DNA of 64,000 bases from Candidatus Melainabacteria bacterium 17Bon1m (GCA_032128875.1 JAVLKG010000007.1:256001-320000), one strand, 5' to 3'; positions 9,098 to 52,331 are shown, counted from the stretch's first letter. The notes: a model not told the origin generated them from the sequence alone. A program made the numbers and translations.

Positions 9098-10405
9098 TTA
9101 CTTCTTGTCCCCGCCGGTCGGTCCATTTGTCGGACCCTGCGCATCGTCATCGTTCTTTGCTTCCGGCACGCTGCTCAAGATGGGCAGCAGCAAGAAGCAG
9201 GCGAACGTGAAGCCTGCTGAAACGAGAATCAGCGGGGTCAGGGTATGGAACACATCCACGTACAGACGCGCGCCGATGATGGCGGAAATTTGCGTGAAGG
9301 CGTTCGTGACGGACATCAACGCGGCGAAGGTGAAGCCTTCAGCCTTGGGCGGGCAAGCCTGAGCCGCCAGAGTCAGCGTCGACAGCGTGGCGATCATTGC
9401 AGCAGCACCGAACACGAGGTTGATGCCGATTGCGATTGCCTGGCTGTACGCCGTGGGCGTCAGCAGCAAGAGGTAAGCAAGCGTACCGATTGTGCCGGTG
9501 ACGATGCTAAATGCGAGCTGCTGCTTGAGCGGACGTTTGGCGAAAAACTTGCCGTAAGCGATAGCGCCGAGCACCTGACCGGCAGAGCCGATCGCACCCA
9601 GAATGCCGATGAAGGCCTGGGAGAAGTGCAAGGTGTCCACCTGGTGGTAATACCATGGGCTGCCGAAGCTCGGGCTGAAATACCAGAAAGCCAAGAACGC
9701 GATCACCGCCCAAAGAGTCTTGGAGCGGAAGCCGGCGAACAGGCTCTTGGTGGTCGCTTTCATTTCTGCGACGTTGATCGGGCTCTTCTCCTCGCGGACG
9801 ATGAACCAGCTCGCTGCCATCACTGCAAGCGGCGCGCACATGGTGATGATTGCCGCCACGTGCAAGGCCGTTGTGGGCTCGAAGACCGTACACAGCCAGC
9901 CGCCGAACAGTGAAGTTCCGACGGAAGCGATGTTGATCCACAGCCACTGCACACTCTGGAAACTCGCCGTCATCCCGGTTTTCTTACCGTTTTCCACCAT
10001 GACCGCGTCGATGATGACGTCGGAGGCGGCGGTGCCGAATGCGGTGAGCATCAGCGCCGTGACAATAGTGACCGGGTTATCCAGACCGAATAGCCATAGG
10101 AAGCCACCAGCCGCCAGCGTGTTCGTGACAAGAAGCCACGTTTTGCGCCGGTAGCCGAAGAGGGGGATGAAGTCACTCACCAATCCGTAGAGCGGTTTGA
10201 TTGCCCACGGAAGAGTGAGAATCGCCAGGTACTCTGTGACCTGCGCCGGGTTCAATCCCAAAGCCTGCTTGAAGAAGAACTGCAGCGGCTGAGAGACGAG
10301 TCCGACGTGTTGTCCGATGCCCTGGCAGAAGTAGACCAACCCAAACAGGATGATCAGCCGCCTTGCGTAGGCGGTCAGATCTTGATTGTTGTTGGAGGGC
10401 GTCAT
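9098..10405 (-). CDS. MFS transporter, folate-biopterin (BT1) family
   Basis: About 12 TM helices; LPWAIKPLYGLVSDFIPLFGYRRK, DVIIDA and CPPKAEGFTFAALMS motifs. Confidence 0.88.
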   Translation of the reverse strand: MTPSNNNQDLTAYARRLIILFGLVYFCQGIGQHVGLVSQPLQFFFKQALGLNPAQVTEYLAILTLPWAIKPLYGLVSDFIPLFGYRRKTWLLVTNTLAAGGFLWLFGLDNPVTIVTALMLTAFGTAASDVIIDAVMVENGKKTGMTASFQSVQWLWINIASVGTSLFGGWLCTVFEPTTALHVAAIITMCAPLAVMAASWFIVREEKSPINVAEMKATTKSLFAGFRSKTLWAVIAFLAFWYFSPSFGSPWYYHQVDTLHFSQAFIGILGAIGSAGQVLGAIAYGKFFAKRPLKQQLAFSIVTGTIGTLAYLLLLTPTAYSQAIAIGINLVFGAAAMIATLSTLTLAAQACPPKAEGFTFAALMSVTNAFTQISAIIGARLYVDVFHTLTPLILVSAGFTFACFLLLPILSSVPEAKNDDDAQGPTNGPTGGDKK

Positions 10406-42692: not shown

Positions 42693-43682
42693 ATGGTTTC
42701 TGAAAAACTTACAGAGTATTCGGTAAACGTAATGGCGTTGGCGCGCATGGAAGCCGAACGCACCGGCAGCGCGAGTGTTGATGTTGAACATATTTTTTTG
42801 GGTCTGCTAGGCGAGGCGTATGGTGTTGCGTCTGAGGTGTTGCGCAAGAATGGACTTCAATTGCACGGTGTTCGAGAGCAAATGTGCGAACAAACAAAAG
42901 AAGAACGTTTGGCTCAAAAAGGCAATTATTCTTTCAGCATTAAAGCTGCGAAAATCCTCAATTCTGCGCTTGAATTTGCGGTTCAAATGGAGAATGAAAA
43001 CATAGACACAGAGCACCTCTTGCTTGCTGTTCTTGCGGAAAAGAATTGGAAAGTTCAGAGAATATTTGACGACTTTGGGGTTGACGCAAATAGGTTGCGC
43101 AGTGATGTTGGGAAGGTTGTGCATGAGCGAGAGTTGAATCCGGCATCCGCTGAGGATGCTGGTTTTGAAGAAGCGCCTCGCAAGAAGAGAGCAATATCTC
43201 CGACCGCGGAGTATTCTTGGCCTTCTACAACGCCGATGTTCTCTCACTTTAATGACTCTGCGATTAAAGTGGTTATGAGGGCGCAAGAAGAAGCAAGGCG
43301 CCTCGGCCACAATTTTGTTGGTACGGAGCAGCTATTGCTTGGTGTTATACCGGACAATGGTTTAGCGGGTAAAGTATTTCGAGATTTAGGCATCACCCTT
43401 ATTGCTGCTCGTCGTGAAGTTGAGAAAATCATCGGACACGGTTCTGGTTTTGTTGCTGTAGAAATACCTTTCACTCCGCGTGCCAAGGGGCTTTTGGTCG
43501 GTGCAATAGACGAAGCTCGCAGTCGTGGTTCTGAAATAATCGGAGCAGAACATATTTTGCTGTCGTTACTCGCCGAGGAAAATTGTGTTAGTACTCATGT
43601 CTTGCAAAATCTAGATGTGGACGCTGGAAAAGCCCGTGGAAACTTGCACAATGCTATGCGACGACCTGTTGTGGATGAGTGA
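42693..43682 (+). CDS. Clp N-terminal-domain-only protein (2 N-domains)
   Basis: [43 protein letters not shown]; no Walker A/B. Confidence 0.9.
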
Positions 43683-44526
43683 CTCAATGTTCGATAAATT
43701 CAGCAAGGATGCAATTAAAGTGGTCATGCAAGCGCTTGATGAGGCGCGCGTGTTTAAGCACAAAGAAGTAGGATCAGAGCATCTGCTTCTGGGTGTTTTC
43801 GCCTTTTGTGGCGATTCTATTTCGAAGGGTTTTCCGTACCTGGAAGGTGTCGATCTCGATCAACTGCGTGATGCAGTTAGAAATGTGAATCCGAAGGGCT
43901 CCAAAGCTAGCCCCGCCGAGCTTCCATTTAGTGACGAAGCCAAGGAGATACTCGTAAGTGCTTATCAAAAGTCTGGTCACAGCTTGATTTACTCACGACA
44001 CATTTTACTTTCGATGCTTGATAAGCAGAATAGTGTTGGAGTAAAGGTTCTCGAAATGCTTGGCGTTGACCTGGCTCCAGGAGCCGGGGGAAGCGAAGAC
44101 GAGCAGTCCGCAGCTGTCCTTAAATGTGCTCGGGAGGAGGCTCGAAGACTCGGACACAATTTTGTAGGTACTGAGCAGATTTTGCTCGGATTGATACTTT
44201 GCAGGGGAAGTGTCGGCGCGGTTTTAAGTAGGTTTGGAATTGAGGTTGGGTGGGCTCGACAAGAAGTCGAAAAGATCATTGGTCGCGGCTCTGGTTTTGT
44301 GTCCGTCGAAATTCCATTCACTCCGCGAGCCAGGAAAGTGCTGGAATTTGCCTGGGATGAGGCTCGTCAACTAGGACACAATTACATTGGAAATGAACAT
44401 TTGATGCTTGGGATTCTTCGTGATGATACCAGCGTTGCGGCTCAGATTTTGAAAGCGGCTCAAGTCAACACCGAGGAATTAAGAGCTGCTATCCTTGCTC
44501 TTTTCGATCAGCCAGAGGAAGCGTGA
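43675..44526 (+). CDS. Clp N-terminal-domain-only protein (2 N-domains)
   Basis: [53 protein letters not shown]; start overlaps the previous stop (43687 is an alternative). Confidence 0.9.
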
Positions 44527-44535
44527 GGCGATTCC

Positions 44536-45444
44536 GTGTTCGATAAATTTAGCAAGGATGCAATCAAAGTGATTATGCAAGCGCAGGAAGAAGCGCGCAT
44601 GCTGAAACAGCAAGAAGTAGGTTGCGAGCATTTGCTACTGGGAGCTTTTGCTTCTGAAGTGGATTGTTTGCCTGTAGAGTCTGCCAACTCTCGTGACGGT
44701 ACCCTAGAGAAACTTAGGGCTTCGTTTTCGCAACGAGTGAAGAAGGGCGCCAAGCCTAGCCCGAAAGAATTACCGTTTGACGATGATGCAAAGCGCGTGC
44801 TAGTCAGTGCGTATCAAATTTCAGGGCACAAAACGATTTGTGCAAGTCACATTTTTCTGGCGCTGTTTGATTTTCCAGCAATACTGAATGTCTTTCGCGA
44901 TACGAAAATTGACGCGAACGAGTTGCGCTACGCCCTGGTTTATCAAACGCAATTCCACGGGGGGCTGCAAGTTGTTGATGGTTCCTCTGTTTCGCAGCAA
45001 GAAGCCATGGAGCTCTGTCGAGATATCTCAGATGTGATTAGCTTTGCAGTTGCTGAAAGACATAATTTCAAGCAGAAGCATTTGAGTTCTGAGCTCCTTT
45101 TGCTTGGACTTATTCATGCTGGTGGCATGCCCGCTAAAATTTTGGAGAACGCTGGAGTTACGCTGGATTCGGCGCGCGAGCATTTTGTGAAACTGATTGG
45201 TGAAGCTGCTGAACCAGCAGTGGTGGAAGTAAAACTGCAGTTTACTCCGCGTGCCAAGAAGCTATTGCACAATGCCAAGGAAGAAGCGTTTCAGTTGGGA
45301 CAGGATAAACTGAAAGGACTGCACCTTTTGCTCGGATTCACCCATGAGCAAGATGGTGTTGCTTGGCAAGTCTTGCGAGAAAATGGCGTAGATTTAGCAG
45401 CATTGCGAGCGTCTGTGCTAGCTTTATTTGAGGAGACACGTTAG
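44536..45444 (+). CDS. Clp N-terminal-domain-only protein (2 N-domains)
   Basis: [38 protein letters not shown]. Confidence 0.88.
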   Translation: MFDKFSKDAIKVIMQAQEEARMLKQQEVGCEHLLLGAFASEVDCLPVESANSRDGTLEKLRASFSQRVKKGAKPSPKELPFDDDAKRVLVSAYQISGHKTICASHIFLALFDFPAILNVFRDTKIDANELRYALVYQTQFHGGLQVVDGSSVSQQEAMELCRDISDVISFAVAERHNFKQKHLSSELLLLGLIHAGGMPAKILENAGVTLDSAREHFVKLIGEAAEPAVVEVKLQFTPRAKKLLHNAKEEAFQLGQDKLKGLHLLLGFTHEQDGVAWQVLRENGVDLAALRASVLALFEETR

Positions 45445-45455
45445 GGATTTCGCTG

Positions 45456-45905
45456 GTGTTAAAAAACTACACTGAAAGAGCTACATACTCGATTCGGCGG
45501 GCTGAGGAAGAGTCGCGTAAGATGCGACATAACTACATCGGCACTGGCATGATTCTTCTTGGAATTTTGGAAGAAGGCGGCGCGGCAAGTCGGCTACTCA
45601 ATAGTTTTGGTATTACCTACGCGGCTGCACATGAAGAGCTTGAAGCGCTCATTGGGCGAGGCTCTGGTAATCTCGCGGCTGACATTCCGTTTTCACCAAA
45701 TGCGCAAGAGGCACTGGCATTTGCGCGCAAAGAAGCAGAGTCTCGAGAGATAAAAGATGTCGCTGTTCCGCATCTGCTTTATGCGTTGCTGCATGGTAAA
45801 GATACAATGGCTATGCGCGTTTTCGATGTGATGGGAATCAACTTTGATGTGATCAGAAAAAAGGTTGCTGAAGAACTCGATAAGAATTACGGCTCGCGAA
45901 ATTAG
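45456..45905 (+). CDS. Clp N-terminal-domain-only protein (1 N-domain)
   Basis: YTERA, HNYIGT, IGRGSG, IPFSPNA, HLLYALL. Confidence 0.88.
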   Translation: MLKNYTERATYSIRRAEEESRKMRHNYIGTGMILLGILEEGGAASRLLNSFGITYAAAHEELEALIGRGSGNLAADIPFSPNAQEALAFARKEAESREIKDVAVPHLLYALLHGKDTMAMRVFDVMGINFDVIRKKVAEELDKNYGSRN

Positions 45906-45925
45906 TTCGTTCGCGACTTCTTATT

Positions 45926-46195
45926 CTATTTCTTCCGGTCGAACTCTTGATAGGCTGCGCTGTCATTACGGTTTCCGACGACTGTGACATACAGCACAGA
46001 CGAATCAAATCGATAGATAATGCGAAATTCTCCAACGTCTTTCCGGAAATGTTTGCCGTTTCCCATTGATATTGAATCAGTGGGACGTGGTTCATCGCAC
46101 AACTCAGTAATTGCTTTTAGTATCTGCAAAAACTGTTTGTTGTCGCGCTTTTTCAAGAAACGCATTGCGTCATTTGTTAGGTCTGGTTTTAGCAT
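45926..46195 (-). CDS. RelE/ParE family toxin
   Basis: 89 aa; PRP..S, FRKDVGEFRIIY, VGNR; overlaps the antitoxin. Confidence 0.88.
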   Translation of the reverse strand: MLKPDLTNDAMRFLKKRDNKQFLQILKAITELCDEPRPTDSISMGNGKHFRKDVGEFRIIYRFDSSVLYVTVVGNRNDSAAYQEFDRKK

Positions 46196-46442
46196 CGCGA
46201 GTCAGTTTTTCCTTGATGAAACTGGCAGTCGCTTCGGTACCAATGTAACCAGTCTTTTCTGCTACTTCGATTCGTGCCAACCAATAGTCGTTTTCAAGCT
46301 GCATCAGATGCTCGTAATCGGCCTGAGCGATCATAACTGCAACAGGGCGGCCATTTTTCTCGATTGAGATTGGCTCCTTTTGTGCCGCGGCAATCGCTTC
46401 ACTCGTTTTGTTTTTTAGTTCTGTTGCGGTGATTCGTTTCAT
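46170..46442 (-). CDS. Phd/YefM family antitoxin
   Basis: ITATELKNK, PISIEKNGRPVAVMI. Confidence 0.9.
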   Translation of the reverse strand: MKRITATELKNKTSEAIAAAQKEPISIEKNGRPVAVMIAQADYEHLMQLENDYWLARIEVAEKTGYIGTEATASFIKEKLTRDAKTRPNK

Positions 46443-46482
46443 TTAAGTCGGACTATCAAGTTGCCTGTTGTGTATATATTGT

Positions 46483-46513
46483 CTATTTTGTTCAAAATAG
46501 CTATTTATGTCAA
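46483..46513 (-). promoter_or_regulatory. TA promoter with overlapping palindromic operator
   Basis: Minus strand TTGACA-17 nt-CAAAAT; CTATTTTG-TT-CAAAATAG palindrome at 46483-46500. Confidence 0.55.
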
Positions 46514-46578
46514 ATTTATTGCACCGCCTGACTTTTGGGGTTTAACCTGGATACTAAGCGTGATAGTAATACGAGGGG

Positions 46579-46625
46579 CAAAAAAAGAGGTGTCGCGTGT
46601 AGATTGCTCCACAAACGACACCCCT
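46579..46625 (-). terminator. Rho-independent terminator of the icd operon
   Basis: Minus strand GGGGTGTCG...CGACACCTC followed by TTTTTTT. Confidence 0.75.
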
Positions 46626-46729
46626 TTGCCAGGTTTGGCTGAAACTCCATCAACCTGACGCTTCATGTGGTTAGTCTAAAGCGATGCGTCAGGTTGACGT
46701 GTCAGCGTGCCGAGGGCTCAGCTTGAGCT

Positions 46730-47083
46730 TTAGCCAGCATTCGCGTCCAGCTCGGCGATGAGGCGCTCGAGCTTTTCGACGCGTTTGCAAGCGGCGGTAT
46801 ACGCACCCTGCGCGGCCGCATAGCGGACGCGATAGGGATTGTGCCGATAGCCCCATTTGAAGCTCGAGTAGAGCCTCGTCATGTGGGCGCGGTGCTCGCG
46901 AGCGACTGCGCGATCGGTCTTCGCCTTGATGAGTGCCTCGCGCCGTTCGGCGGAGTTCATCGCACGGAAGCGAGCCGTTTCGGCTTCGTCAGCCTTGCGG
47001 TACTCGCGTTCGAGGTAGAAGTGAAAACCGACCAGCGCCGCTACAGGGAGCAGCGCGGCGGCGATGATGAAGATTGTGGTCAT
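46730..47083 (-). CDS. Single-TM hypothetical protein
   Basis: GGGAG SD; N-terminal TM; helical basic tail. Confidence 0.7.
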   Translation of the reverse strand: MTTIFIIAAALLPVAALVGFHFYLEREYRKADEAETARFRAMNSAERREALIKAKTDRAVAREHRAHMTRLYSSFKWGYRHNPYRVRYAAAQGAYTAACKRVEKLERLIAELDANAG

Positions 47084-47099
47084 GTTGTTATGCTCCCGT

Positions 47100-47678
47100 T
47101 CAGAGTGTGAGTTCGTAGCAATTGAGCACGCGCTTGCGACCCTTGTACGTTCCGACCTGCTTGAAGCCGAAGCGAGGGTAGTAGGCGTTGCTGCGCATGC
47201 CGATTGGTGTCTTGAGCGCGACTTTCTCCATGCCGCGTTTACGCGACGCGGTAATCAGTTCGGTGAGGAGAAAGCTGCCGATGCCGCTGCTCTGCATGTC
47301 TTCGGCAACGCCGATTTCATGAAGAGTGGTGGCACCATCTTGGCGGTGGTAGGCGCGCAAGAAGGCGACGATGCGCCCGTCTGCGTCGACCACCACGCGA
47401 ATGCGGTGTTGCGATTTCTCGCCGTCGGCGTTTTGATTTTTCACCGCGTCTTCGACCACCACCCTCGGCAGATAGCCGAAGGATGCGCGATTGTTCTTGC
47501 TGTTGATGATCTTGCGGATGCCGACGTAGTCTTCGACCTGGGCGTCACGCACCGTCAACTTCGTCGAGATTGTCTTCGAAGCGTTAGTTGCGCCTGTCCG
47601 GATCGTCGTCGGCAGCTTGCTGCGATGGGCGATGCAGGAAGGCCCACCAGCAAGAAGTCCGAGTTTTGATTTCGCCAT
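47100..47678 (-). CDS. GNAT family N-acetyltransferase
   Basis: EIGVAEDMQSSGIGSFLL motif A; SNAYYPRFGF motif B; AGGAG SD. Confidence 0.88.
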   Translation of the reverse strand: MAKSKLGLLAGGPSCIAHRSKLPTTIRTGATNASKTISTKLTVRDAQVEDYVGIRKIINSKNNRASFGYLPRVVVEDAVKNQNADGEKSQHRIRVVVDADGRIVAFLRAYHRQDGATTLHEIGVAEDMQSSGIGSFLLTELITASRKRGMEKVALKTPIGMRSNAYYPRFGFKQVGTYKGRKRVLNCYELTL

Positions 47679-47693
47679 TGTCGTCTCCTCTGG

Positions 47694-48332
47694 TTAGCCT
47701 TCGAGCGCCGCTGCGAGCATGCGGTCGTAGGTGACGCGCCGTTCGTAGTCCGTCTTGGGCGGGTTGTAGGGCAGCGCATCCGTGTAGATACGGGCGAAGT
47801 CGCCGGCTTGCGCCTTGCGAATTCGAGCGTTCCACACCTTGATGAGCTGGGCGGCGCAGGCGTCGGGCAGCGGTTCGCGGCGAGTGCGAAACTTGCTGGC
47901 GAAGCGACCCATCCAGCCGTTGCGGCGGACGTTCTCGAAGATTTGAACAATCTCGGGCACGTCGCTCACGCCGGCGGTGCTGATGATGAAGGGCGCCTTC
48001 TCATAGCGGAACGGCATGGTGCTGCCGTTTGCGCCGGGGGCGTCGGAATTTTGTGCGACTTGCCAGCGAATCTCGCTGCGATCGGAGTAGGGAAACGGTG
48101 TCACCGGCGGTGTCAGGTAAACCAGCTTGAAGCCGGCGTCACCACCCTGGACAAACGCGATGCGAGCGCCTTTCAGCTCGTGCACCTTCTTGGGGTGCAT
48201 GAGGTTGGTCTTGTGGCATCCGGTCAAACCGAAGCTGCCGAATTCCCAAAAGGGATCCGAGCGCATCTCGGTGGGGCGCTCCATGTGCGGCTGCCGGAGC
48301 AGCGCGACGAGCACTGTCTGCTTCTTGGGCAT
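47694..48332 (-). CDS. Uncharacterised protein (RSDPFWEFGSFGLTGCH motif)
   Basis: GGAGAG SD; GC3-rich; operon position. Confidence 0.75.
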   Translation of the reverse strand: MPKKQTVLVALLRQPHMERPTEMRSDPFWEFGSFGLTGCHKTNLMHPKKVHELKGARIAFVQGGDAGFKLVYLTPPVTPFPYSDRSEIRWQVAQNSDAPGANGSTMPFRYEKAPFIISTAGVSDVPEIVQIFENVRRNGWMGRFASKFRTRREPLPDACAAQLIKVWNARIRKAQAGDFARIYTDALPYNPPKTDYERRVTYDRMLAAALEG

Positions 48333-48435
48333 GTTTCTCTCCATGAGTTTGTTATGAAAGGAGAGCCACCGCGACTTAACGCGATGGCTCTCGGTTACTT
48401 AGACAAACCGCACAGAGAGGCGCTCTGCGCGATTA

Positions 48436-49989
48436 CTACGCTTCTTTGGCGGCGTTTTCGCCCACCTTCTCCACCTTCTCGGCGACCTTCTCGGCGACGA
48501 TGACGCCGGTCGTGTCCGGGAATGGCACCGCCGCACCGAGCTTTCCGTCTGCATCTTCGAGCAGCCAGCAGTGCCCGTTGTAGCGGTTTTCCTCGATCCA
48601 CGGATTGAGGTAGCTGTCGCAGTGCACGACTTTGTAGCCGAGCGCGACCAGCTCTTTGTGCCATTCGTCGGTGGTCCAGACGCCGAACTCCTCGTTGACT
48701 TCCATCGCCCAGTTGGCGAGGTAGTCTTTCTTCGAGAGGAATTCGTTGGCTTCGTGCAGCGTCATGCGGAAGTGCGTGACGCCGTCGAAGACTCGCTCGT
48801 CGTAAGCGAAGCCGGGTTTCGCCGACTTGCCTTTGAACTCGCGGGCGAACTTGCGGAAGCGCTCCTCGAGTTCTGCGTCCTTGCAACGCAGCCAAACAAG
48901 GCGGTCGCCGTTTTCTGGTTTCACACCATCGCGAATGATGATGCGCCCACCCACCATCAGTTCCAACCAGGCGTTCTTCAACGCCAGCCGGATCTGGTCA
49001 CGGTCGTAGCCGTTGTACGAGTACACCTCGTGCATGACCGACGAGAAGATGATGGTCGACACCGTCCCTTCAGCGAAGCGCTTGTGGATGATGTTGCCCA
49101 TCACAACTGCGACGTTGTGGTTGGGATAATGCTGACCTTCCGAGCGGTGCAGCAGGTCACGCGACAGGTCCATGCCGACGATCTGCGCCTTCGGATAGAG
49201 GTTCGACAGATGAATCAGCAGGGTGCCAGTGCCGCAGCCTTTGTCGACGATGTAGCCGCCGACAATCCAGGGGCAAATGTCCTGAATCTTCACCGATAAG
49301 CTGGCGTCCATGCCCTCGCTGTAGACGGCGAAGTCACGACCGTGCGACAGTTCGCCGTCGTCGTTGAGCAGCACGTCGCTGAAGAGCGTAGCGATACGCT
49401 CTTCGACTTGGTGGCTTTCGAAGACCGCAGCAGTCTCTGCCGTTGCCAGCTTTCGCCAGTCGCCGCGAGTCGCCACTGCCTGAAGCAGGTCGATGGGCAG
49501 CTTGCCGGCGGTGCTGGGCACGATCGCCTTGTAACCCGCTTTGGCGAAGTGCTTGTTGACGTCCGCGTTGGACGAGACGAGCACCGTGTTGGCGGGCGTG
49601 AGGACGGTCGTTTCGTCCGACTCCGACTTCACGACGTCGCAGATGTGCGCCGTCCAAGCCAGTGAATCGGGGATATCCGCGGCAGCATGGATTTCGTACG
49701 GGCGCCCGAGCTTCTTCGCGAAGCCCTCAGCGATGAGCTTGCGCTCGTTGCTGTAGAGCGGGTGCCGCTTGGTGCCGCCTTGCCCGTCCGCCGTGATGAC
49801 GAAGACCAGCTTGCCGGGAACGTGCTTGAGGGCACGCTTGAGCGAGCGTTCCTGGTCTTTGGTGACGCCATGCCAGCGTCCCACGAGGAGCAGATACTCG
49901 GGCTTCACGCCGAGGGCTGCGGTTATCGCCGTGCCGAGAGCTCCCTTCGGAGCGGGTCGGGGCGATTTCTTTACATGAGTCGTGCGCAT
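48436..49989 (-). CDS. Nucleotidyltransferase-like domain fused to class I SAM methyltransferase
   Basis: N-terminal VGRWH..T and TKRHPL...ER (NadM-like layout); C-terminal VDKGCGTG, GMDLS, SSVMHE, GGRIIIRDG; CAGGAG SD. Confidence 0.8.
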   Translation of the reverse strand: MRTTHVKKSPRPAPKGALGTAITAALGVKPEYLLLVGRWHGVTKDQERSLKRALKHVPGKLVFVITADGQGGTKRHPLYSNERKLIAEGFAKKLGRPYEIHAAADIPDSLAWTAHICDVVKSESDETTVLTPANTVLVSSNADVNKHFAKAGYKAIVPSTAGKLPIDLLQAVATRGDWRKLATAETAAVFESHQVEERIATLFSDVLLNDDGELSHGRDFAVYSEGMDASLSVKIQDICPWIVGGYIVDKGCGTGTLLIHLSNLYPKAQIVGMDLSRDLLHRSEGQHYPNHNVAVVMGNIIHKRFAEGTVSTIIFSSVMHEVYSYNGYDRDQIRLALKNAWLELMVGGRIIIRDGVKPENGDRLVWLRCKDAELEERFRKFAREFKGKSAKPGFAYDERVFDGVTHFRMTLHEANEFLSKKDYLANWAMEVNEEFGVWTTDEWHKELVALGYKVVHCDSYLNPWIEENRYNGHCWLLEDADGKLGAAVPFPDTTGVIVAEKVAEKVEKVGENAAKEA

Positions 49990-50137
49990 AGTTTTTCTCC
50001 TGCAAAGGAATACGGCATTTTCGTGCCGAATTAGACACGACACCGATGGAGCAAATTCATCGCTGAACTTGCAACCATCGGGTCGTATCCGGTGGTCGTC
50101 CTGGCGGACCTGACGACCACCCGGTCGCAGGCTCGCC

Positions 50138-51448
50138 TTACTTGCGAATCGCCTTCTTGCCCTTCAGCGCGGCTTCCACCGTGCGTCGGGTCGGCTTCAC
50201 CATGTTGGCGATGACCGCGTCCGTGAACTTCACCGTGCCGACCTGGTTGCCGTTCTTCATGAACCGCGCCAGATCTCCGGTGGCAGTCTTCGAACGCAGC
50301 GTCTTCTCGATGGCGCGAGTGACGCACACGGCGGCCTCGTCCCAGTCGATGTACTCCAGCATCATGACGCCGGAGAGGGTGAGCGAGCAGGGGTTCGAGA
50401 TACCCTTGCCGGCGATGTCGGGCGCGGTGCCGTGCGTGGCTTCGAACATGGCGCTCTTGGCGCCGATGTTGGCGCCCGGAGCGATGCCCAGTCCGCCCAC
50501 TTGACCGGCTGCGTCGTCCGAGATGTAGTCGCCGTTGAGGTTCGTGGTCGCGATGACCGAGAACTGAGTCGGCTTGCAGAGCAGCTCGTAGAACGTGGCG
50601 TCGGCGATGCGGTGGTTGAGCAGGATCTTGCCTTCCGGCAGCTTGCCGCCATGCACCTTCCAGAGGTCGTCCTCCGACACCATGATGTCGCCGAACTCCT
50701 CAGCCGCAAGCTCCAGACCCCACTTCAGGAACGCGCCTTCGGTGTGCTTCTGGATGTTGCCCTTGTGTACGATGGTCACGACTTTGCGGCCATGGTCGAT
50801 GGCGAACTCGATTGCTGCACGCACGATGCGGCGCGAAGCATACTTCGAAATCGGCTTGATGCCGATGCCGGAGTCTTCGCGGATTTCGTGACCGTACTTG
50901 CGAGCAACGGCGATGATCTCTCGCGCGCCTTCGGAGCCGGCCTCGAACTCGATGCCCGCATACACGTCTTCCGTGTTCTCGCGGAAGATGACCACGTCCA
51001 GGTCCTGCGGGCGCTTCACCACGGACACGATGCCCTTGAAGTAGCGCACAGGACGGACGCAGCTGTACCAGTCGAAGTGCTGGCGCATGGTCACGTTCAG
51101 GCTGCGGATGCCGCCGCCGGTGGGTGTGCCGAGTGGTCCCTTCATGCCGATGCCGTAGTAGTCGAGCATCTCCAGGGTTTCGGCCGGCAGGGGGCTGCCG
51201 AACTTCGCCACTGCTGCGTCACCAGCGTAAGCCGGCAACCAGGTGATGCTTCGTTTGTCGCCATAGCATTTCGCCACGGCGGCGTTGATGATGCGACGAG
51301 TCGCTTCCGAGATTTCCGAGCCGATGCCATCGCCGTCGATGAACGGAATGATGGGGCGGGTCGGTTTCACGGCTTTGCCGTCCACGAGCTGGATGATTTC
51401 ACCAGCCGGGGCGGGCTCGCCGTAGAACTTTCTGACAGGTTTTGACAT
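50138..51448 (-). CDS. icd: Isocitrate dehydrogenase, homodimeric, NAD-type signature
   Basis: IPFIDGDGIG, TPTGGGIRSLNV, RENTEDVYAGIE, VHKGNI, NLNGDYISD, EATHGTAPDIAG. Confidence 0.95.
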   Translation of the reverse strand: MSKPVRKFYGEPAPAGEIIQLVDGKAVKPTRPIIPFIDGDGIGSEISEATRRIINAAVAKCYGDKRSITWLPAYAGDAAVAKFGSPLPAETLEMLDYYGIGMKGPLGTPTGGGIRSLNVTMRQHFDWYSCVRPVRYFKGIVSVVKRPQDLDVVIFRENTEDVYAGIEFEAGSEGAREIIAVARKYGHEIREDSGIGIKPISKYASRRIVRAAIEFAIDHGRKVVTIVHKGNIQKHTEGAFLKWGLELAAEEFGDIMVSEDDLWKVHGGKLPEGKILLNHRIADATFYELLCKPTQFSVIATTNLNGDYISDDAAGQVGGLGIAPGANIGAKSAMFEATHGTAPDIAGKGISNPCSLTLSGVMMLEYIDWDEAAVCVTRAIEKTLRSKTATGDLARFMKNGNQVGTVKFTDAVIANMVKPTRRTVEAALKGKKAIRK

Positions 51449-51851
51449 TTTTCGGACTCCTTTCGTCAGAGTTTTTCAACGAAGAACAGTTGGTCCGTTG
51501 TGACTCGCGTAAGGACGCGCGAGCTGAACAACGGACCGGACAGGCTTTCAGCTAATGGTCGATAGTCAACGCTCGGAGGAATACCCGAGAGAATTGCCGA
51601 AACGATGGTTGGGACTACGTTGTCGGTGTTTGTCTGACTAAAAGCTCCAAGAGTTGAAAGAAAAGAGATACAGCTATGACCCTAGTAGGTTTTAGGCAAT
51701 GTCAAGCAATGCTTATTGCCTAATAATTTACGCAAGCCCGCGCGAAACTTTGAAATCTTAGATTTCTGGGTTCACTTAGCTGCGATAGCTCTTTGAACTG
51801 GGCTAAGTTGAGCTGGTCTTAAGAGAGGTCTAGGGTGGGTATCATGTTGGC

Positions 51852-52190
51852 ATGTTGCCAGCCAATCGCGACCCTTCTGAAAACAATTCCGTCGGTTTTC
51901 CGCTTCCCGCTGAAACGCGTCGGCTATCTGTCTCCTTGCGAAATTTCAATGCTGTTGTGGTGGTAATTTTGCTGTCGGTGGCCGTTTGGTATTGCAACCA
52001 AATTCATATCTGGGAACTCGGAAAGGGCACTATTTGGGCATTTTTTTTGCATCGATACTGGGGCATAATCCCAATAGTTTTTGCGGTGTTGCCGGTAGCG
52101 GCATGGAGCGTGCCGATGCTCTATCTGCAAGACAAAGCGCAGAAGAAAAAACTGATCGTTGAATATCGCGATATTCCAAAACTTCGATAA
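51852..52190 (+). CDS. Small membrane protein, two TM helices
   Basis: Two hydrophobic segments. Confidence 0.45.
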   Translation: MLPANRDPSENNSVGFPLPAETRRLSVSLRNFNAVVVVILLSVAVWYCNQIHIWELGKGTIWAFFLHRYWGIIPIVFAVLPVAAWSVPMLYLQDKAQKKKLIVEYRDIPKLR

Positions 52191-52331
52191 ATCCAGTCAT
52201 AGGCGTGATCCACACCTAGACTAACCTCCCTTCAAAAGCATTTGATGTTTTTACCGAAAGGCTTCTGAAGGGTCCACCTAACGCAGTTGTGTAGAATGGA
52301 AATGAGAGCAACGATCGAAGGGTGACGATTC

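Follow-up and report, generated by a model that had tools for sequence, protein, structure and literature searches.

Layout and composition of the locus

A block of five genes was analysed in a 64,000-nt stretch of DNA (hereafter the window) from Candidatus Melainabacteria bacterium 17Bon1m (GCA_032128875.1 JAVLKG010000007.1:256001-320000), in which coordinates count from the first letter. The source assembly, a member of Obscuribacteraceae, comprised 7.55 Mb in 35 contigs with 49.9% GC, and was 93% complete with a contamination estimate of 4.5%. Five open reading frames (ORFs), all in one orientation, were found on the minus strand at 46730-51448 in the order icd, fusion protein, motif protein, GNAT and membrane protein. 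Of these, only the last three appear to work together as a unit. From gene order, composition, predicted folds, family contexts and cofactor residues, we tentatively regard the whole as a foreign block, composed of a paralogue of isocitrate dehydrogenase (IDH) of NAD type, a methyltransferase and, behind these two, a unit of GNAT-PUA kind (reader, GNAT and membrane protein). The features are listed below.

50138-51448, minus strand: icd, 436 aa; homodimeric-type isocitrate dehydrogenase paralogue with NAD-type cofactor residues
49990-50137, minus strand: spacer between icd and the fusion-protein gene; structured, with three hairpins and no clear U-tract
48436-50043 as listed (GTG start at 50043), minus strand: fusion protein; likely start ATG 49989, giving 48436-49989 and 517 aa
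48324-48439, minus strand: leader of the motif-protein gene, conserved in the genus
47694-48344 as listed (216 aa), minus strand: motif protein; likely start ATG 48332, giving 212 aa, the form corresponding to P0001
47100-47678, minus strand: GNAT acetyltransferase, 192 aa
46730-47083, minus strand: small membrane protein, 117 aa, with one N-terminal hydrophobic helix
46580-46627, minus strand: intrinsic terminator, a long hairpin followed by U7
46590-51600, strand unassigned: GC-rich block of ~5 kb, also rich in GC at third codon positions (GC3)

The likely start of the fusion protein is preceded by AGGAG, and its 517-aa product corresponds to database cluster P0137. Shine-Dalgarno (SD)-like sequences (AGGAG, GGAGA, GAGGAG or GGGAG) were located 6-9 nt 5' of all five starts, and the intergenic spacers measured, from icd to the membrane protein, 148, 91, 15 and 16 nt. 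Folding was compared with 200 shuffles: the 148-nt and 91-nt spacers displayed z-scores of -6.80 and -8.12, and the 150 nt 3' of the last gene, which end in a hairpin and U7, a z-score of -6.34, none of the 200 shuffles being as good in any of these cases. The spacer between icd and the fusion-protein gene had a minimum free energy of -76.4 kcal/mol; among nine sequences from the genus only its first hairpin and the SD region were conserved. A simple terminator scan showed no enrichment (8 found versus 8.9 expected) and did not list the site at 46580-46627. The first-pass annotation of this DNA, made from the sequence, had described five co-oriented genes of one GC3-rich style with SD sites, hairpin-rich spacers and a single terminator near 46600, and all of this was recovered here; its domain calls also agreed with Pfam, which recognised Iso_dh, a class I methyltransferase and GNAT and returned no match for the motif and membrane proteins.

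GC content of the block was 60.6%, a value reached in 0.85% of 7400 5-kb windows of the genome. GC3 of the five genes ranged from 0.73 to 0.84, versus a genome mean of 0.529 (sd 0.076; 4450 ORFs of at least 200 aa); 3.2% of these 4450 ORFs displayed a GC3 of at least 0.73 and formed a separate tail, the mode of all being near 0.52. GC3-rich ORFs of the source genome were concentrated on four contigs (C7, C5, C8 and C13). A Pfam scan of 20 of the others matched 15, which were accessory enzymes and not of ribosomal type (peptidases M1/M4/M16/S41, acyl-CoA dehydrogenase, PPK2, MoxR, AMP-binding and others). The notion that high GC3 signals high expression was therefore rejected, since these are not classic highly expressed genes. 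To judge by composition, the five genes belong to a foreign-looking, GC3-rich fraction of the genome; numerous transfers from a donor of high GC content might have given rise to this fraction, or it might stem from contigs that are foreign to the bin. The pair of icd and methyltransferase found in a sister genus likewise displayed 61-63% GC inside a region of 51% GC. Acquisition of the block was probably horizontal and older than the diversification of the genus.

The motif-protein family and its predicted fold

The motif protein matched no entry of Pfam, NCBIfam, PADLOC or PHROGs, and neither it nor three other solo members of its family matched EVE, ASCH or YTH in Pfam at E <= 0.01. Relatives of near-full length numbered 191, and 349 representative clusters were retrieved at E <= 0.001 from 1.84 billion proteins. 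The family alignment (A1) contained 40 invariant columns, including LRxP...E.R.DPFW..GSFG...CH, and all 22 aligned members displayed a basic pI of 8.8-10.6. As aligned, these proteins constitute a small and tight new family without a Pfam model. A tblastn search with the motif protein gave no match in 72,556 plasmid and 50,697 phage records.

The AlphaFold (AF2) model of the motif protein reached a pLDDT of 86.8 and a pTM of 0.85. When it was searched with VIA against 48,161 chains, the top 17 rows were all EVE, YTH, McrB-N, EVE-HNH, ASCH or THYN1 proteins (Z 4.5-6.9), among them PH1033 (Z 6.9), Mmi1 YTH (6.8), McrB-N (5.8), ASCH (5.6) and VcaM4I (5.6). Foldseek returned the same proteins, with a best E of 0.26, and the nearest clusters in the ESM Atlas included a 'putative EVE domain' (score 0.90). 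The modelled motif protein thus probably displays a PUA-like fold of the EVE/YTH/ASCH class, in which the invariant residues F32, W33, F35 and F38 are candidate aromatic pocket residues only. EVE, YTH, ASCH and the N-terminal domain of McrB are PUA-like readers of m5C or m6A. The ASCH class also includes an ac4C amidohydrolase (title of PDB 9kyf).

A cytidine/dCMP deaminase gene adjoined two unrelated solo motif-protein loci (L032:388-975; L090:8626-9150 and 9392-10042), one of which also carried a uracil-DNA glycosylase. Such neighbours may hint at cytosine-related chemistry.

Nmad3 as the usual partner of the family

A metagenome scan yielded 247 motif-protein relatives, of which the best 80 were kept; with two genome loci these made up the 82 loci examined, six being Obscuribacter-like and 76 lying outside. 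Flanks of 1.5 kb to the left and right were available for only 27 of the latter. Among the 76 outside loci, Nmad3 was found upstream of the motif protein in 30, downstream in 11, fused to it in 10 and by tblastn in two more; 11 loci were too short to judge, and 12 had room on both sides yet no Nmad3. Among the longer motif-protein relatives, 15 out of 16 carried PF18754 (Nmad3), which Pfam confirmed on two fused proteins, and the order motif protein then Nmad3 was encountered in three other genera of Obscuribacteraceae. The Nmad3 Pfam model did not match the motif protein of the window, which on sequence grounds is a partner of Nmad3 and not a member of that family.

The predicted structure of Nmad3 (pLDDT 75) matched the same PUA-like set (Z 5.1-6.4). 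Its aligned representatives (A3; L152:2268-3110) displayed invariant R7, D11, H70, D72, D109 and H169, and modelled as a PUA-like barrel. In the source genome, 93% complete, tblastn with 19 Nmad3 sequences gave no match at E <= 0.01; a family search gave none either, but its controls likewise matched nowhere. Pairs of Nmad3 and motif protein were neighboured by tyrosine integrases (nine loci), type III res (seven) and mod (four), Mrr and a TIR-STAND gene. No PADLOC model matched Nmad3 or its neighbours. A full-text literature search on the domain names, whose coverage did not extend to Iyer et al. 2013, found nothing on the function of Nmad3; a nucleotide-modification-associated domain, which one being unspecified, is listed among predicted defence domains in PMC13092281.

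GNAT, membrane protein and leader

The GNAT matched Acetyltransf_1 with 48 bits (cut-off 20.7), which places it in the GNAT family, and its acetyl-CoA motif QxxGxG (QSSGIG; Q129, G132, G134) was invariant in 11 orthologues. The nearest NCBIfam model was ArsN1a (45.5 bits versus a cut-off of 170). The best 19-residue hydrophobic stretch of the membrane protein covered residues 4-22, and its pI was 9.9; it matched nothing in Pfam, NCBIfam, PADLOC or PHROGs, and relatives, 52-88% identical, were found in the genus only.

The spacer between motif protein and GNAT, 15 nt in the window, varied from ~19 to 88 nt in relatives. In a genome of another genus (G015), a motif-protein homologue had, 114 nt behind it, a GNAT that differed from that of the window (25% identity); genes for two phosphatases, NIF and His_Phos_1, preceded them. 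A further genome (G058), devoid of motif protein and fusion protein, displayed an orthologue of the window GNAT (53% identical by tblastn, 56-58% in genome searches) located 11 nt after a 173-aa ORF, all seven PDB sequence matches of which were ASCH proteins, each of them weak (E 0.046-0.33); a 115-aa hydrophobic ORF followed the GNAT. In G102 the GNAT followed a 425-aa uncharacterised protein, and in G215 a possibly broken GNAT and the motif protein were located on different contigs. Beside the latter GNAT, L163:2054-3181 (minus strand) encoded TPR repeats and an anthrax lethal factor N/C-terminal domain (29.4 bits versus 27.4, a weak match) and looks metalloprotease-related by this resemblance. 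A complex prediction for motif protein and GNAT scored 0.01, which counts neither way.

Two leader segments, CTCTGTGCGGTTTG and ACAAA(T)CTCATGGAGA, were identical or nearly so in 11 distinct sequences from the genus, while the stretch between them varied in content and in length (~40 to ~110 nt). The two segments are complementary, and their pairing covers the SD site of the motif protein. In an alternative pairing, the 5' segment combines with upstream CGCGCAGAG to give a hairpin just past the stop codon of the fusion protein; the two pairings are mutually exclusive, and one of them masks the SD. Covariation was not seen because both sides are invariant. The leader had no second copy in the source genome, further motif matches falling in unrelated sequence, and Rfam gave no match at E <= 0.1 over 46300-52000, leader included. 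A conserved leader before the motif protein points to a regulation of the last three genes that is separate from that of the upstream ones.

Three sequencing runs of what is probably the source sample (X2-X4) carry an RNA label; in them, window positions 45800-52300 were contained in 17-kb contigs at flat depth. These contigs span convergent genes, and the three libraries, labelled transcriptomic, behave like DNA; the runs are therefore uninformative on transcripts. A fourth run labelled RNA displayed short pieces only, some of them from relatives.

Isocitrate dehydrogenase paralogue

The icd product matched Pfam Iso_dh (E 1.4e-89, 301 bits). It was assigned to prokaryotic homodimeric isocitrate dehydrogenases by the curated model NF005425, barely over the cut-off (491.1 versus 490), and remained under that of TIGR00183 (513.5 versus 567.3). 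The substrate- and metal-site motifs GGGIRSLNV, RPVRY, FRENTEDVYAGIE, VHKGNI and NLNGDYxSD, in which we take the catalytic residues to lie, were all conserved relative to 2iv0 and 1hqs. Regarding the cofactor, the window enzyme displayed 'HGTAPDIAG' and 'TGDLA', as did PDB 2d4v and 1iso, presumably a natural NAD-dependent isocitrate dehydrogenase and an engineered NAD-specific E. coli enzyme, respectively; in the NADP-type comparison (2iv0, 1hqs, 3dms) 'APKYAG' stood at the 'APDIAG' site. The NADP-type Lys-Tyr after 'HGTAP' and Tyr in 'TYD' were absent from the window enzyme, which carried Asp-Ile and Gly. We take these positions to be 344, 345 and 391 of E. coli IDH, and the 'APDIAG'/'TGDLA' positions to bind the NADP 2'-phosphate in that enzyme.

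Two good icd copies were found in the source genome. The second one, located on another contig (C4) and 56% identical, displayed 'APKYAD...TYDLER' and is of NADP type, Lys-Tyr and Tyr being kept; it is taken for the housekeeping enzyme. Most genomes of the family displayed only a copy ~52-58% identical to the window icd, and an extra copy at least 60% identical to it was present in ~13 out of 60. From its NAD-type residues and the distribution of copies in the family, the window icd is therefore an additional paralogue, which is probably linked to NAD, and not the housekeeping enzyme of the tricarboxylic acid cycle.

Fusion protein

The fusion protein matched Methyltransf_25 (37.1 bits, cut-off 27), and its motif I, DKGCGTG, was invariant in 20 family members, as in class I methyltransferases dependent on S-adenosylmethionine (SAM). 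Its N-terminal domain aligned with the NMNAT model PRK01153 over residues 52-220 (E 0.003; 17.2 bits versus a cut-off of 127), and its C-terminal 280 residues with the C-terminal half of PRK06922 (E 2.2e-31). The 222 relatives came from several phyla, as indicated by source names and Atlas taxa, and represent a widespread uncharacterised family; Bacillus plasmid genes were 29-35% identical to the fusion protein, and the PDB contained no sequence relative at E <= 0.01. Within the block, the sole match in PADLOC 2023 was a weak one, mad2, on the methyltransferase domain (21.3 bits).

Canonical NMNAT motifs are of the (H/T)xGH and ISxTxxR types. The 20 aligned members (A2) displayed GRxHxxTxxQ instead of HxGH and kept HPLxxxER, and the late motif of ISxTxxR type had no Arg across the family. 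Since the residues of adenylyl transfer are lost, the N-terminal domain is more likely only to bind a nucleotide-like ligand than to catalyse this reaction. The role of nucleotidyltransferase, considered for the fusion protein and thought possible in the first-pass annotation, was set aside for the same loss; the methyl- and acetyl-transfer domains that it had proposed, both scoring over their Pfam cut-offs, and the NADH that it had assumed as product of icd, for which NAD-type residues are present, are consistent with the sequences.

The fusion protein occurred without icd or motif protein in five loci of two other genera, next to an RNase_T exonuclease or to an MFS transporter, the latter in the vicinity of an NAD kinase. 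At two loci of one genus (L126 and L127, genus g26), it adjoined the MFS transporter, and the NAD kinase gene lay ~2.6 kb off. The NAD kinase, the NMNAT-like domain and the NAD-type IDH together form a faint NAD theme.

Distribution, synteny and neighbouring genes

The whole block was kept, together with both flanks, in every contig of the same genus that was long enough to show it. One flank consisted of a Kef-type exchanger and an M20 peptidase, the other of a Clp_N array. As the five genes stand together only in this genus and with identical flanks, their linkage there is inherited and carries little functional weight. Motif protein and fusion protein were each present in 10 out of 61 family genomes and both in five, three of which belonged to one genus. 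The window GNAT was found in 13 out of 104 family genomes (four genera), and a search of 400 more genomes from the phylum revealed no orthologue at E <= 1e-15. Genes of the block were thus scattered independently within Obscuribacteraceae. Adjacency of icd, fusion protein and motif protein was encountered in one more genus (G226/L026/L157, and L031), and that of icd and a methyltransferase-only form in a third (G110). An apparent duplication of the latter pair (C4 and C6; L130 and L158) was rejected: the contigs are colinear and 92-98% identical over 17 kb, and most likely represent two strains in one bin.

Some of the other block genes were carried by the six Obscuribacter-like loci out of 82. 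None of the 76 outside loci, of which only 27 had flanks of 1.5 kb to either side, displayed a neighbouring homologue of icd, fusion protein, window GNAT or membrane protein (tblastn, E <= 1e-3), so that the co-occurrence of homologues elsewhere, on which the first-pass annotation had made its five-gene operon depend, was almost entirely lacking for the set of five.

The array beside the block consisted of four tandem genes (42693-45905, plus strand) with Clp_N repeats only, two to four in each, and without ATPase domain; it was present in all loci of the genus with a varying copy number. Between array and block (45926-46442, minus strand), a low-GC Phd/YefM antitoxin gene overlapped a gene for an 89-aa partner without Pfam match. 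This pair was located inside the Clp_N array in one relative (L025) and missing from another (L012), and is therefore considered mobile, toxin-antitoxin-like and not part of the block.

Interpretation

In the reading that we tentatively prefer, the block falls into two parts. The first would be an NAD-preferring IDH paralogue followed by a SAM-dependent methyltransferase, the two being loosely linked and the NMNAT-like N-terminal domain of the latter binding a nucleotide-like ligand. The second would be a tightly coupled three-gene unit with a structured, conserved leader of its own: here, a basic PUA-like protein may recognise a modified base or nucleotide and direct the GNAT as its effector, which might acetylate nucleic acid, aminoacyl-tRNA or a nucleotide, and a single-pass membrane protein would be the third member. 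Any link between the two parts is conjectural. The three-gene unit would correspond to the GNAT-EVE/ASCH modules predicted for prokaryotic conflict systems, split into separate genes and with a new family of readers which, in most other lineages, appears paired or fused with Nmad3 and not with GNAT.

Several observations weigh against this reading. The VIA scores are all below a Z of 8, a range flagged as a possible common arrangement; Foldseek did not do better than the E given above; and the motif protein displayed no Pfam-level sequence relation to EVE or ASCH, nor its family any to Nmad3 (hhalign probability 0.1% between A1 and A3). Solo members of the family had mixed neighbours (cytidine/dCMP deaminase twice, methyltransferase once, and others). 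The ASCH call for the 173-aa ORF depends on its weak PDB matches, Pfam giving none. GNAT orthologues in two genera (G102 and G215) had no PUA-like neighbour, so that the partnership rests on three instances from one bacterial family.

The alternative that survives best is that unrelated acquired genes landed together and were kept in the genus by descent only. It is somewhat unlikely, yet it would account for the synteny that extends over both flanks in all sufficiently long contigs of the genus, for the patchy distribution in the family and for the ~3% of genome ORFs that are similarly GC3-rich and clustered on few contigs. What it leaves unexplained concerns the last three genes, which are joined by spacers of 15-16 nt and preceded by a conserved leader, and whose arrangement, a GNAT immediately preceded by a PUA-like ORF, is encountered again in two other genera, built there from parts that are not orthologous.

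At the other extreme, all five genes might form one pathway, in which a mark written by the methyltransferase is read by the PUA-like protein and followed by a second one from the GNAT, NAD-IDH supplying 2-oxoglutarate/NADH or being a regulated target. Such a pathway is unproven and rather unlikely. The common GC3 style and single terminator speak for it, as do the adjacencies of icd with fusion and motif proteins in a second genus and with a methyltransferase-only form in a third, and a distant locus (L036) at which an unrelated class I methyltransferase comes after a solo motif protein; all adjacency of block genes is however confined to one bacterial family and may go back to a single inherited event. 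Moreover, motif and fusion proteins rarely coincide among family genomes (five of 61), the fusion protein does without icd and motif protein at five loci, none of the 76 outside loci carries any of the other four genes, and the hairpin-rich spacers of 148 and 91 nt part icd, fusion protein and the rest. From the single modification pathway inferred in the first-pass annotation, the modification theme is thus retained, as indicated by the reader-type predicted fold, the Nmad3 partnership and the precedent of GNAT-PUA kind, and the five-gene linkage is not.

That the last three genes are a toxin-antitoxin-like or anti-phage module, with the GNAT as a toxin that might, for example, acetylate charged tRNA, and with the PUA-like protein as sensor or neutraliser and the membrane protein as effector or anchor, appears improbable: the integrases (9), type III res (7) and mod (4), Mrr and TIR-STAND genes beside Nmad3 pairs would suit it, as would the toxin or defence roles predicted for GNAT-EVE proteins in passages of PMC7641849 and the unspecified domain in PMC13092281, but no PADLOC model matched motif protein, GNAT, membrane protein or Nmad3, plasmid and phage records held no motif-protein match, the window neighbours are housekeeping-like apart from the Phd/YefM pair, and the block is stably inherited across the genus.

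A wider and speculative proposal, for which we see little probability at present, extends the preferred two-part reading. The motif-protein family and Nmad3 would together form an undescribed sensor of modified nucleotides or bases with two PUA domains, which travels in islands rich in integrases and restriction genes; Obscuribacter-like bacteria would have connected it anew, to a GNAT as effector and to a membrane protein, behind a methyltransferase 'writer' and NAD-IDH, as a new mark-and-read or conflict system under an RNA leader switch.

Under the preferred reading of a GNAT-PUA unit behind an IDH paralogue and a methyltransferase, Nmad3, so far only a name, would gain a constant partner family and, from modelling, a probable fold class. 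Both halves of the Nmad3-motif-protein pair look like modified-base readers, which makes the pair open to direct binding assays. That the reader family can apparently swap Nmad3 for a GNAT ties it to GNAT-EVE/ASCH modules and provides a small experimental unit of three genes. The Obscuribacteraceae are relatives of cyanobacteria that do not photosynthesise, and the data document for them a fraction of foreign genes as well as a second IDH that is probably NAD-linked. The locus also calls for caution in operon-based inference, as five co-oriented genes of the same style need not form one pathway.

Comparison with known systems

The window IDH shared its 'APDIAG' and 'TGDLA' residues with the NAD-type enzymes 2d4v and 1iso, and its substrate-site motifs were conserved; it kept the Arg of the E. 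coli NADP enzyme at what we take to be position 395, and its cofactor preference is a prediction from sequence. The N-terminal domain of the fusion protein aligned over nearly the whole model of archaeal-type NMNAT (PRK01153) and retained 'xPLxxxER', whereas HxGH was changed to TxxQ, the ISxTxxR-like motif was gone and the score fell far under the curated cut-off. A conserved C-terminal module was common to the fusion protein and the Bacillus methyltransferase PRK06922, although here too the score remained far below the curated cut-off.

The motif protein resembled EVE, YTH, ASCH and McrB-N in predicted fold, but differed from them in lacking detectable sequence similarity and in adding a C-terminal helical region (~130-215) and its own invariant motif containing Cys and His. 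Regarding Nmad3 (PF18754) fusions, it belongs to the family that forms the C-terminal half of these ~455-aa proteins, with 40-49% identity; in contrast to the pairs, the window displayed a GNAT where Nmad3 stands in three sister genera.

GNAT-EVE proteins were reportedly first described by Iyer et al. in 2013. Passages of Bell et al. 2020 (PMC7641849) state that GNAT-EVE fusions almost always have an ASCH gene in their operon, and predict toxin, defence or counter-defence roles for them. These (PIN)-GNAT-EVE and ASCH modules, as portrayed in those passages, have in common with the unit considered here the coupling of a GNAT to a domain of the PUA-like modified-base-reader class, the occurrence of family members in defence or mobile contexts, and a function that is predicted only. 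They differ from it in several respects: reader and GNAT of the window are separate genes and not a fusion accompanied by an ASCH gene; its reader represents a distinct family without sequence match to EVE or ASCH; and PIN, AAA_17 ATPase and a second PUA-like gene are absent from the window, a small membrane protein being added. By analogy, the predicted GNAT-EVE/ASCH modules are nevertheless the closest known kind, the resemblance being one of logic only.

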